Of a DNA stretch of 486 nt, positions 1 through 486 are shown one piece after another; position 1 is the stretch's first letter, and each line of letters starts with the position of its first letter. This DNA comes from Escherichia coli (GTDB lineage Bacteria; Pseudomonadota; Gammaproteobacteria; Enterobacterales; Enterobacteriaceae): the NCBI RefSeq assembly GCF_003334405.1, contig NZ_QOWM01000064.1. One strand, 5' to 3'. A model generated the notes under the pieces. That model was not told the origin of the DNA and ran no database searches. It worked only from the letters and a program-made list of their open reading frames with translations. The translations under genes and the position numbers were made by a program.

Positions 1-486
1 GAAGCTGCGCAGCGTTTCCCGGTGCAGGCGGTCGCGGGTGTACTCCACCAGCGGTGTGTCGCCGAGTTTCATGCCTGACAGCCAGCCGCTGCCGTAGGTC
101 AGCCATTCCACGGCGGGCAGGCTGTCCGGTATACAGCGGTTCGCCAGTCCCTGTGCGTTGTACGCATGTCTGGTCTCATGCTGCCAGAGCAGTGCTTCCG
201 TCTGCGGATGATGCACCGTCAGGTGTTCACTGGCGAGGCGGCCTTTACTGTCATAACCATAGTGCACCGTCACCCGGTGCCCTTCGCTGATATGGCTGAT
301 GTCTGTCAGCCAGCCGCGTTCGTCATACTGCCACCGCTCTGCGGTTTCGCCATTCACGGTGCGGTGCGTGAGGCGGTCTGCTTCGTCATAGTGCCAGTGG
401 GTGACCAGCCCCTCATCCTCGCTGCGGATAAGTTTGCCGGTCAGGTCGTGGTGATAACGCTGTGTGCGGCCGTCAAAGCCGGTTTC
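1..486 (-). CDS. Rhs-family YD-repeat protein, internal fragment of the conserved core (partial at both ends)
   Basis: Minus-strand frame with codons ending at + position 486 is open across the whole window (162 codons, no stop; translated by hand). The product has periodic YD-type motifs (RYHHDLTGKLI, WHYDEADRLT, WQYDERGWLT, HYGYDSKGRLAS, VEYTRDRL) spaced about 21-24 residues apart. GC is about 62% (301/486 by hand count). The paralog (rhsA/B/C/D-like) cannot be assigned from 486 bp, so no symbol is given. Confidence 0.88.
25..48 (-). repeat. YD-like repeat unit, degenerate (protein-level): VEYTRDRL
   Basis: Minus-strand codons gtg gag tac acc cgc gac cgc ctg. Tyr and Asp are separated by two residues, followed by RL, and the unit is in phase with the repeat periodicity. 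Confidence 0.45.
45..52 (-). other. Chi octamer (5'-GCTGGTGG-3') on the minus strand
   Basis: Plus strand 45..52 reads CCACCAGC, the exact reverse complement of GCTGGTGG. The match is exact; whether it functions as a RecBCD hotspot depends on the host, which is unknown. Confidence 0.5.
235..264 (-). repeat. YD repeat unit, canonical (protein-level): HYGYDSKGRL, matching YxYDxxGRL
   Basis: Minus-strand codons cac tat ggt tat gac agt aaa ggc cgc ctc. The plus-strand GTCATA at 250..255 is the reverse complement of TAT GAC (Tyr-Asp). Confidence 0.8.
304..333 (-). repeat. YD repeat unit (protein-level): WQYDERGWLT
   Basis: Minus-strand codons tgg cag tat gac gaa cgc ggc tgg ctg aca. Plus-strand GTCATA at 322..327 encodes the YD. 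Confidence 0.7.
367..396 (-). repeat. YD repeat unit, diverged (protein-level): WHYDEADRLT
   Basis: Minus-strand codons tgg cac tat gac gaa gca gac cgc ctc acg. Plus-strand GTCATA at 385..390 encodes the YD. Asp replaces the consensus Gly before RL. Confidence 0.65.
427..459 (-). repeat. YD-like repeat unit, degenerate (protein-level): RYHHDLTGKLI
   Basis: Minus-strand codons cgt tat cac cac gac ctg acc ggc aaa ctt atc. Matches a Y-x-x-D-x-x-G-x-L-I pattern, in phase with the ~22-residue periodicity of the other units. Confidence 0.5.

Follow-up and report, generated by a model that had tools for sequence, protein, structure and literature searches.

Our analysis concerns a stretch of 486 nucleotides (nt) of Escherichia coli DNA, hereafter the window, which lies within the core of an rhsC-type rhs gene and in which several short exact DNA repeats occur. 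We conclude, with a probability that we put at about 0.78, that these repeats are a by-product of coding a recurring peptide motif, and that they feed rare, in-frame deletions of the slippage type between short direct repeats in rhs genes. The repeats themselves, their coding origin, the natural deletion alleles in which one repeat copy is retained, and the enrichment of microhomology at the deletion junctions are all shown by the data.

The minus strand of the window is a single open frame of 162 codons, running from ETGFDGRTQRYHHD to RDRLHRETLRSF. At the nucleotide level, it is 99.4% identical to the annotated rhsC gene of a K-12 derivative, of which it represents codons 667-828 out of 1397. 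Related sequences are present in 3,881 of the 5,426 complete E. coli genomes; the median copy number per genome is three, and these relatives are always annotated as 'RHS element core protein' or as rhsA/B/C. The translation of the window matches the NCBIfam model RHS_core (NF041261; E 3.6e-102, 343 bits, model positions 675-836 of 1261); it should be noted that the whole-protein cutoff of this model, 2000 bits, is out of reach for a fragment of 162 amino acids (aa), and that the full K-12 ortholog is annotated as rhsC. The window also matches the YD-repeat model TIGR01643 (22.4 bits, cutoff 15.8), the model YD_repeat_2x and, twice, the Pfam model RHS_repeat (PF05593; residues 14-48, 2.8e-5, and residues 54-88, 1.3e-3). 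Three YD dipeptides are found in frame in the window, and 19 in the whole rhsC gene. The closest solved relative by sequence is Tse5 of Pseudomonas aeruginosa (8cp6), to which the K-12 ortholog aligns over residues 48-931 (E 1e-125); since Tse5 is an Rhs cocoon protein, this alignment places the window inside the beta-cocoon shell. The other parts of an Rhs protein, namely a PAAR-like N-terminus, a DPxGL motif that closes the core, a variable toxin tip and an immunity gene downstream, fall outside the 486 nt; at the K-12 locus that is 99.4% identical to the window, the protein begins with MSGKPAARQGD, NIDPLGLE precedes the variable tip, and ybfB lies downstream. The window differs in nothing of kind from K-12 rhsC and the other clade I Rhs core genes, which encode YD-repeat beta-cocoon effectors of the type VI secretion system.

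An earlier note on this DNA had reported that the hexamer GTCATA occurs three times and the 11-mer CAGCCAGCCGC twice, and both repeats proved to be exact. The hexamer occurs at positions 250-255, 322-327 and 385-390, which makes three copies in all, every one on the plus strand; 0.10 copies are expected under dinucleotide-preserving shuffles, and none of the 200 shuffles gave three. The 11-mer, present at positions 79-89 and 307-317 only (0.00 expected), is a maximal repeat, as the flanking bases differ. In the coding direction, each hexamer reads TAT GAC (Tyr-Asp) in frame, within HYDEADR, QYDERGW and GYDSKGR, respectively reached from positions 385-390, 322-327 and 250-255, and the 11-mer corresponds to the xGC GGC TGG CTG of RGWLT and SGWLS. 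The spacings of the repeats, 63, 72 and 228 nt, are all divisible by 3. Furthermore, the hexamers at 322-327 and 385-390 are parts of a 9-mer, TTCGTCATA (coding strand TATGACGAA). The gene and these repeats are located as follows:

1..486, minus strand: rhsC-type (clade I) Rhs core coding sequence, residues 667-828, about seven degenerate YD-repeat units of the beta-cocoon shell.
307..317, minus strand: copy A of the 11-mer, GCGGCTGGCTG in the coding direction; encodes R-GWL-T in the WQYDERGWLT unit and forms the 5' boundary of a natural 228-nt deletion.
79..89, minus strand: copy B of the 11-mer; encodes S-GWL-S in the LTYGSGWLSG unit and forms the 3' boundary of the 228-nt deletion.
382..390, minus strand: 9-mer copy 1, YDE of WHYDEADRLT, including the hexamer at 385-390; 5' end point of 63-nt deletions.
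319..327, minus strand: 9-mer copy 2, YDE of WQYDERGWLT, including the hexamer at 322-327; 3' end point of 63-nt deletions.
250..255, minus strand: third GTCATA, YD of HYGYDSKGRL, hexamer only; no natural deletion or duplication junction found there.

In total, the window contains eight exact maximal repeats of at least 8 nt, seven of which lie in frame on recurring motif residues (GWL, TVH, YDE, HR, HY, WLT, DRL). Together with the matches to RHS_core, YD_repeat_2x and RHS_repeat, this bears out the proposal of the earlier note that the repeats are the nucleotide footprint of the YD-repeat architecture. When the protein was held fixed and codons were redrawn from the gene's own usage, the probability that all three YD dipeptides share one hexamer was 0.07, that the two xGWL sites are identical over 11 nt was 0.033, and that the longest repeat in the window reaches at least 11 nt was 0.086. 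The repeats are far above the expectation for shuffled DNA and only marginally above that set by protein and codon usage; with P values of about 0.03-0.09 under this coding null, the DNA repeats are therefore present roughly as the protein repeat and codon bias impose. There is no sign that they are kept for their own sake, and the 19 YD dipeptides of rhsC are encoded by all four possible combinations of codons (TATGAC 7, TACGAT 5, TACGAC 4, TATGAT 3). In the whole rhsC gene (L001, 2003-6196), the number of repeats of at least 8 nt is 362, versus 220 +/- 16 expected under an independent-codon null, and of at least 10 nt it is 41, versus 20 +/- 4. Out-of-frame repeat pairs are likewise in excess (136 versus about 82), and the gene-wide excess is probably due to codon-context or composition effects that the independent-codon null ignores, not to selection.

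The repeats do not form part of a DNA array. With Tandem Repeats Finder, the window gave no hit and the 4.2-kb gene gave two of 19 nt, both trivial, so that a tandem-repeat contingency (phase-variable) locus, which would consist of a head-to-tail array of units with high identity, is ruled out. A protein self-BLAST of RhsC gave no off-diagonal match at E 1e-3 or better, and the YD units are too diverged for a simple protein dot-plot. We also considered whether neighbouring YD units share codons, as might follow recent duplication of a unit or local conversion; 7 of the 18 adjacent pairs are identical, which is not significant (permutation P = 0.10). The identical pairs come in runs between rhsC codons 489 and 994 (TATGAT x2, TACGAT x3, TATGAC x4, TACGAC x2).

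The earlier note had staked its view of these repeats on the presence of repeat-length indels at their positions, and such indels exist, of 228 nt at the 11-mer and of 63 nt at the 9-mer. Eight protein clusters of Shigella dysenteriae (Sd197, 1617, WRSd3 and others) lack residues 724-799 (76 aa, 228 nt), which is the exact interval between the two GWL sites. The DNA junction in S. dysenteriae reads ...TATGACGAAC, GCGGCTGGCTG, TCAGGCATG... (with TCAGGC after the 11-mer); thus, a single copy of the 11-mer is left, whose left flank derives from copy A and whose right flank derives from copy B. It should be noted that copy B is allele-specific: most paralogs have GYL (GGTTACCTG) at this position, and the 228-nt-deleted allele has GWL-type sequence. 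At least four finished S. dysenteriae genomes (Sd197 and three others, complete) carry this allele, each at three loci, kdp/ybfA, yibF/selA and priA/rpmE. The three copies are 99.9-100% identical to one another over 3.2 kb and 97% identical to K-12 rhsC, a distribution that would be accounted for by one deletion event and subsequent homogenisation of the S. dysenteriae cores. The deletion sits in genes that are already decaying: all three S. dysenteriae type 1 rhs cores are interrupted by IS1 just after or within the 3' part of the core, with loss of the toxin tips (L005-L012, ends 6264/6642).

The presence of the same deletion at three loci raises the possibility of RecA-dependent unequal crossing-over of misaligned YD units, either within a gene or between sister or paralogous rhs copies, which would be the classical 'rearrangement hot spot' behaviour on the scale of single repeat units. 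RecA-mediated exchange in E. coli needs about 25-50 bp of uninterrupted identity, according to studies of the minimal efficient processing segment (MEPS), and the exact repeats at the junctions, of 5-12 nt, are far below this length. Homology of the length required by RecA is not available elsewhere either: exact repeats reach at most 11 nt in the window and 14 nt in the gene, and imperfect self-matches do no better than 31 nt at 81% identity. On the one hand, imperfect similarity does extend beyond the exact repeats (for example, these 31 nt, or 19 nt at 89%), the near-identity of the three deleted loci shows that exchange between copies takes place, and Rhs cores are known substrates of homologous exchange, with a turnover driven by recombination (PMC2935791). 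On the other hand, the units are too diverged to give any array with Tandem Repeats Finder, no reciprocal duplication was found, and the spread between loci is explained by exchange of full-length cores, not by the microhomologies. We therefore regard unequal crossing-over as very unlikely. Of the suggestion in the earlier note that such repeats could support slippage or unequal exchange within or between rhs copies, the intragenic part stands, since repeat-bounded deletions of 228 and 63 nt are found. For exchange between copies at these microhomologies there is no support; exchange across the long homologous cores accounts better for the spread from copy to copy.

For nine in-frame repeat pairs of the window, we designed the junctions that a deletion and a duplication would leave, and searched for them in the 5,426 complete E. 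coli genomes, using flanks short enough that normal sequence cannot give the exact 28-nt word that megablast needs. Three of the nine deletion junctions were found, in one genome each, and all were confirmed by alignment. Firstly, rhsC of E. coli LR-17-1 has a clean deletion of 63 nt (21 aa, one repeat unit) at TATGACGAA; its frame is intact and the immunity gene is present. Secondly, the rhs gene at the priA-rpmE locus of E. coli strain 789 has a 51-nt deletion at the 10-mer TGACGGTGCA, and its frame is also intact. Thirdly, rhsC of E. coli strain R1 has a 207-nt deletion at the 8-mer TGGCTGAC, and this gene carries an internal stop as well. The repeats used by the last two are located as follows:

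263..272, minus strand: 10-mer TGACGGTGCA copy 1, TVH of RVTVHY; 5' end point of the natural 51-nt deletion.
212..221, minus strand: 10-mer TGACGGTGCA copy 2, TVH of LTVHH; 3' end point of the 51-nt deletion.
305..312, minus strand: 8-mer TGGCTGAC copy 1, WLT of GWLTD; 5' end point of the natural 207-nt deletion.
98..105, minus strand: 8-mer TGGCTGAC copy 2, WLT of EWLTY; 3' end point of the 207-nt deletion.

No match in the complete genomes was obtained with 36 control junctions, which have the same deletion lengths, end points moved by 18-33 nt and at most 2 nt of microhomology (3/9 versus 0/36, Fisher P ~0.006). Usage of the repeats in the window depends on their length: the 11-, 10- and 9-mers were all used, the 8-mers in one of five cases, and pure hexamer pairs in neither of two. 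Junctions involving the hexamer at 250-255, with products of 72 and 135 nt, were absent from the complete genomes. A bare hexamer is too short to matter, and the pair that is in use is the 9-mer.

Three K-12 laboratory strains gave matches to duplication junctions, which turned out not to be duplications: a normal rhs fragment is followed by TATA, the same letters as the spacer that we used. In these strains (H74-H76; E. coli Origami2-DE3, XL1-Blue and TOP10), a 26-nt stretch from the region of the window (coding GACCGCCTCACGCACCGCACCGTGAA) precedes TATA, and the annotation switches there from RHS element protein to a phage 'DNA-packaging protein' gene; this suggests an rhs fragment cut short at the border of a prophage or insertion.

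A second, independent 63-nt allele came from a search with the 162-aa translation, which returned short partial proteins only, so that a full-length RhsC query was needed for other alleles. One E. coli protein among them (P0010) lacks exactly WHYDEADRLTHRTVNGETAER, that is, 21 aa or 63 nt. It is encoded by a 553-nt draft contig (L003, JAVAKV010000288.1), and is reported in two samples. Its junction (positions ~100-125 of the contig) is a patchwork, TGGCA-G-TATGACGAA-GC-CGGC, in which the G derives from copy 2 and the GC from copy 1, as though patch repair had acted on a heteroduplex spanning the imperfect 17-nt repeat. This exact allele is absent from the complete genomes, where the best 40 matches all align in two pieces that span 616 nt (553 + 63).

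The search with full-length RhsC showed that the deletions are not confined to the window, as it returned many proteins of 1087-1376 residues, each a full core from which a single internal stretch is missing in frame. For 25 core deletions, identified among 120 retrieved proteins, the mean microhomology at the junction is 6.2 nt, versus 2.83 +/- 0.26 nt at random in-frame positions matched for deletion length, and this mean was reached in 0 of 2000 resamplings; the junction repeats were measured in K-12 rhsC as a proxy for the parent. A 12-mer of rhsC, CGGCAGGCTGAC, with copies 180 nt apart, bounds a deletion of 60 aa. When the DNA of rhsC is compared with itself by BLAST, six of the 15 best off-diagonal matches are in frame with an offset of at most 700 nt. 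Five of these six (offsets 507, 228, 63, 540 and 180) correspond to natural deletion alleles; the remaining nine of the 15, which have larger offsets or are out of frame, correspond to none. At least one end point falls in the window for ten distinct deletions, in addition to those of 51, 207 and 63 nt. Clean junctions at the DNA level were obtained for deletions of 603 nt (repeat ACCGG), 468 nt (repeat GGAAAC) and 210 nt (repeat CCGCCT), with end points as follows:

236..241, minus strand: CCGCCT copy 1, G-RL; bounds the 210-nt deletion of Escherichia sp. E4742 on its 5' side.
26..31, minus strand: CCGCCT copy 2, D-RL; 3' end point of the 210-nt deletion.
274..278, minus strand: ACCGG; 5' end point of the 603-nt (201-aa) deletion, the 3' end of which lies beyond the window.
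482-486 plus one base outside the window, minus strand: GGAAAC, 5' copy; 5' end point of a 468-nt deletion.
14..19, minus strand: GGAAAC, ET of RETLRSF; 3' end point of the 468-nt deletion, which removes nearly this exact window.

One repeat copy is kept, and the deleted length equals the spacing of the repeats, in the deletions of 228, 63, 51, 207, 603, 468 and 210 nt. The 603-nt allele encodes proteins of 1196 aa and is present in nine complete E. coli genomes; it is recent, because its background is 99.9% identical to K-12 rhsC. Among the other alleles in the complete E. coli genomes, that of 120 nt is present in at least 83 genomes, that of 87 nt in 37, that of 540 nt in 2-4, and those of 390, 324 and 510 nt in one each, all these prevalences being lower bounds.

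Other observations on this gene family concern larger rearrangements. At the rhsA/yibF locus of E. coli WL297 (L002, ~3990-4010; window ~230-240), the rhs gene is annotated as 'missing N-terminus'; about 2 kb appear to be missing from its interior, between the vicinity of codon 70 and the RLTGERQ region of the window, with a junction on CTGACCG, and this would be a further repeat-bounded deletion. In several over-long proteins (1579-1990 aa; P0119, P0158, P0179, P0183, P0208, P0215 and P0234) of Shigella sonnei and E. coli, several hundred core residues occur twice, for example q1-1019 followed by q59-1020, and these are annotated as 'rhs core protein with extension'. They could be internal duplications, fused adjacent cores or assembly artefacts, and are the only candidates for gain events.

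An obvious concern is that the repeats are inert, and that the deletion alleles are sequencing or assembly artefacts or ancient indels. The repeats are indeed no more frequent than expected from protein and codon usage, the three deletions recovered by the screen in the window are singletons, and the draft 63-nt allele is known from a contig of 553 nt and not from complete genomes. Against this, the 228-nt allele is present at three loci in each of at least four independently finished S. dysenteriae genomes, the 603-nt allele is both recent and shared by nine complete genomes, and the junctions are all clean, preserve the frame and coincide exactly with a repeat, with no match for any of the controls and none of the resamplings reaching the observed microhomology. 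It is hardly credible, therefore, that the repeats play no part in these alleles.

How would the repeats generate the deletions? The peptide motif, approximately xYxYDxxGRL/T, recurs every 17-25 codons, and the gene favours a few G+C-rich codons; hence, the motif codons return as short exact DNA repeats in one reading phase, as a by-product of coding and not as a designed element. During replication, or possibly during break repair, a nascent strand ending in one copy would re-pair with a nearby downstream copy, so that the interval between the copies is lost and a single copy is left. When the two copies occupy the same motif position and frame, the product would be in frame, with two units fused into a canonical hybrid unit; hybrid units of this kind are seen at the junctions, for example WRYDER-GWLSG and THWHYDE-RGWLT. 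It is because the copies share motif position and codon phase that the deletions are in frame and remove a whole number of shell units. Such alleles arise rarely, with a preference for the longest and closest repeats, and most of them are singletons or reside in decaying genes. In S. dysenteriae, one of them may have spread to all three rhs cores via exchange over about 3.7 kb of core homology. Two parts of this scheme are inferred: that the enzymes at work are those of replication slippage and not of end joining, and that the allele spread by conversion.

The same products are expected from microhomology-mediated (alternative) end joining, in which resection of a double-strand break in the core lets the two ends pair at a short repeat, to be followed by ligation; the resulting junction is identical. 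The microhomologies at the junctions here, of 5-12 nt, lie in the range reported for alternative end joining in E. coli. Moreover, only deletions were seen and never duplications, and some large deletions (468-930 nt) have just 5-7 nt of homology, both of which would suit end joining. However, end joining is very inefficient in E. coli. In addition, the closest and longest repeats are favoured, and the pair 63 nt apart has been used twice independently, which slippage explains at least equally well. Taking these points together, we consider end joining an unlikely source of the deletions, albeit one that deserves to be taken seriously.

Several observations weigh against replication slippage at the repeats as a full account. 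First, sequence data cannot separate it from microhomology-mediated end joining or homeologous recombination. Second, the mosaic junction of the draft 63-nt allele is not explained by a single simple slip. Third, none of the duplication junctions of the nine repeat pairs was found in the complete E. coli genomes, although this negative is weak, because an exact 28-nt word is needed and such duplications would be unstable. Fourth, the events are rare: the in-window repeats have been used in single genomes among about 11,000 core copies, and the 228-nt junction was not found in the complete E. coli genomes. These frequencies are lower bounds, as the screen detects only the designed junctions by an exact 28-nt word and misses out-of-frame or imprecise events. 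Fifth, for singleton alleles in single assemblies, assembly error is conceivable in principle. Finally, the 120-nt and 87-nt alleles are deduced from junction matches and protein alignments only, and may reflect either a deletion or an old insertion.

Slippage at repeats that are a by-product of coding must also be weighed against selection, that is, the microhomologies might be maintained so that in-frame loss of repeat units adjusts shell size or silences the toxin, much as in contingency loci. This might be thought to follow from the junctions, which rebuild a canonical hybrid repeat unit, from LR-17-1, strain 789 and the 1196-aa proteins, which retain an intact frame with toxin tip and immunity gene, and from the two short alleles of 120 and 87 nt, which are common. 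However, there is no excess of repeats over the codon-usage expectation, and out-of-frame pairs contribute to the gene-wide excess, a sign of composition rather than selection. The DNA contains no tandem array, nor are the deletions reversible, since no duplications were found. Besides, the S. dysenteriae genes are truncated by IS1 and decaying, and the gene of strain R1 has an internal stop. We therefore hold maintenance by selection to be highly improbable.

The deletions resemble those known to arise between short direct repeats by slipped-strand mispairing, for which the lacI deletions of Albertini et al. 1982 are reportedly the classical spontaneous examples, and the work of Lovett and colleagues on repeat instability is said to be another. 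Shared features are that one copy is kept, that the length equals the spacing, that longer and closer repeats are preferred, and that microhomology is enriched. What differs in rhs is that the repeats are imposed by a periodic protein motif, so that deletions are in frame and in structural register and whole units are lost; here, moreover, the mechanism is deduced from natural alleles. In solenoid and other repeat proteins, as well as at phase-variable loci, structural units are lost via misalignment of repeated coding DNA. The loss of whole structural units is common to these systems and rhs; unlike them, rhs has no tandem DNA array, no gain events were found in our junction screen, and there is no evidence of reversibility. 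Change in rhs genes has been described as exchange over the long core, the classical 'rearrangement hot spot' behaviour, and displacement of the C-terminus, within a recombination-driven turnover (Jackson et al. 2009, PMC2935791). The gene family is the same, and the 228-nt deletion at three loci in S. dysenteriae implies homogenisation of cores. However, hot-spot exchange and C-terminal displacement involve kilobases of homology between copies or the boundary between core and tip, whereas the events described here are intragenic, take place at repeats of 5-12 nt and remove shell repeats. Neither slippage nor indels in the core are mentioned in that paper, and in the open-access literature we found no paper linking rhs or YD repeats to slippage or to repeat-bounded in-frame deletion, although such an absence is no proof. 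In summary, neither the gene, a known rhs core, nor the classical mechanism is new; this looks like ordinary mutation of the slippage type, and does not change any concept.

Some differences between the window and its relatives lie outside the repeats. No sequence identical to the window over its full length is present in the complete E. coli genomes, the best match being the 99.4% given above. The only three differences with K-12 rhsC, at plus-strand positions 194, 196 and 198, fall within 5 nt and change N-E to E-A. This patch is the state found in other paralogs and alleles (L003, L019), and it looks like a small gene-conversion tract. Directly after the window, RhsD/E-type paralogs have 5-7 additional residues (SFGSMAGSNAAYKLT versus SFGR-YELT; RhsC ~829-835), an indel at the level of the subfamily that is not bounded by any of the repeats examined.

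What do these deletions mean for Rhs proteins? The clearest cases lie in decaying genes, with IS1 truncations or an internal stop, but several alleles keep intact frames and immunity genes. It is tempting, though rather doubtful at this stage, to generalise that YD cocoons lose units by in-frame, register-preserving deletions at motif microhomologies, and that some of the shortened shells still fold, encapsulate and deliver the toxin. Candidates with intact frames are the shells that have lost a single unit, of 21 aa (LR-17-1) or 17 aa (strain 789), and those shortened by 201 aa (nine genomes) and 40 aa (at least 83 genomes); if the idea is correct, these would be natural 'mini-cocoon' variants with which to ask how much shell is needed. 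With regard to annotation, Rhs proteins in E. coli and Shigella databases that look intact at 1087-1376 residues are often full cores with a repeat-bounded internal deletion, and do not represent distinct subfamilies. The S. dysenteriae 228-nt allele, in turn, is a clean marker of homogenisation among rhs cores. Finally, the alleles constitute a natural, graded truncation series of 17, 21, 40, 69, 70, 76, 130, 156 and 201 residues, in which each junction rebuilds a canonical YD unit, and which may be used to probe the tolerance of the Rhs cocoon to the loss of repeat units.

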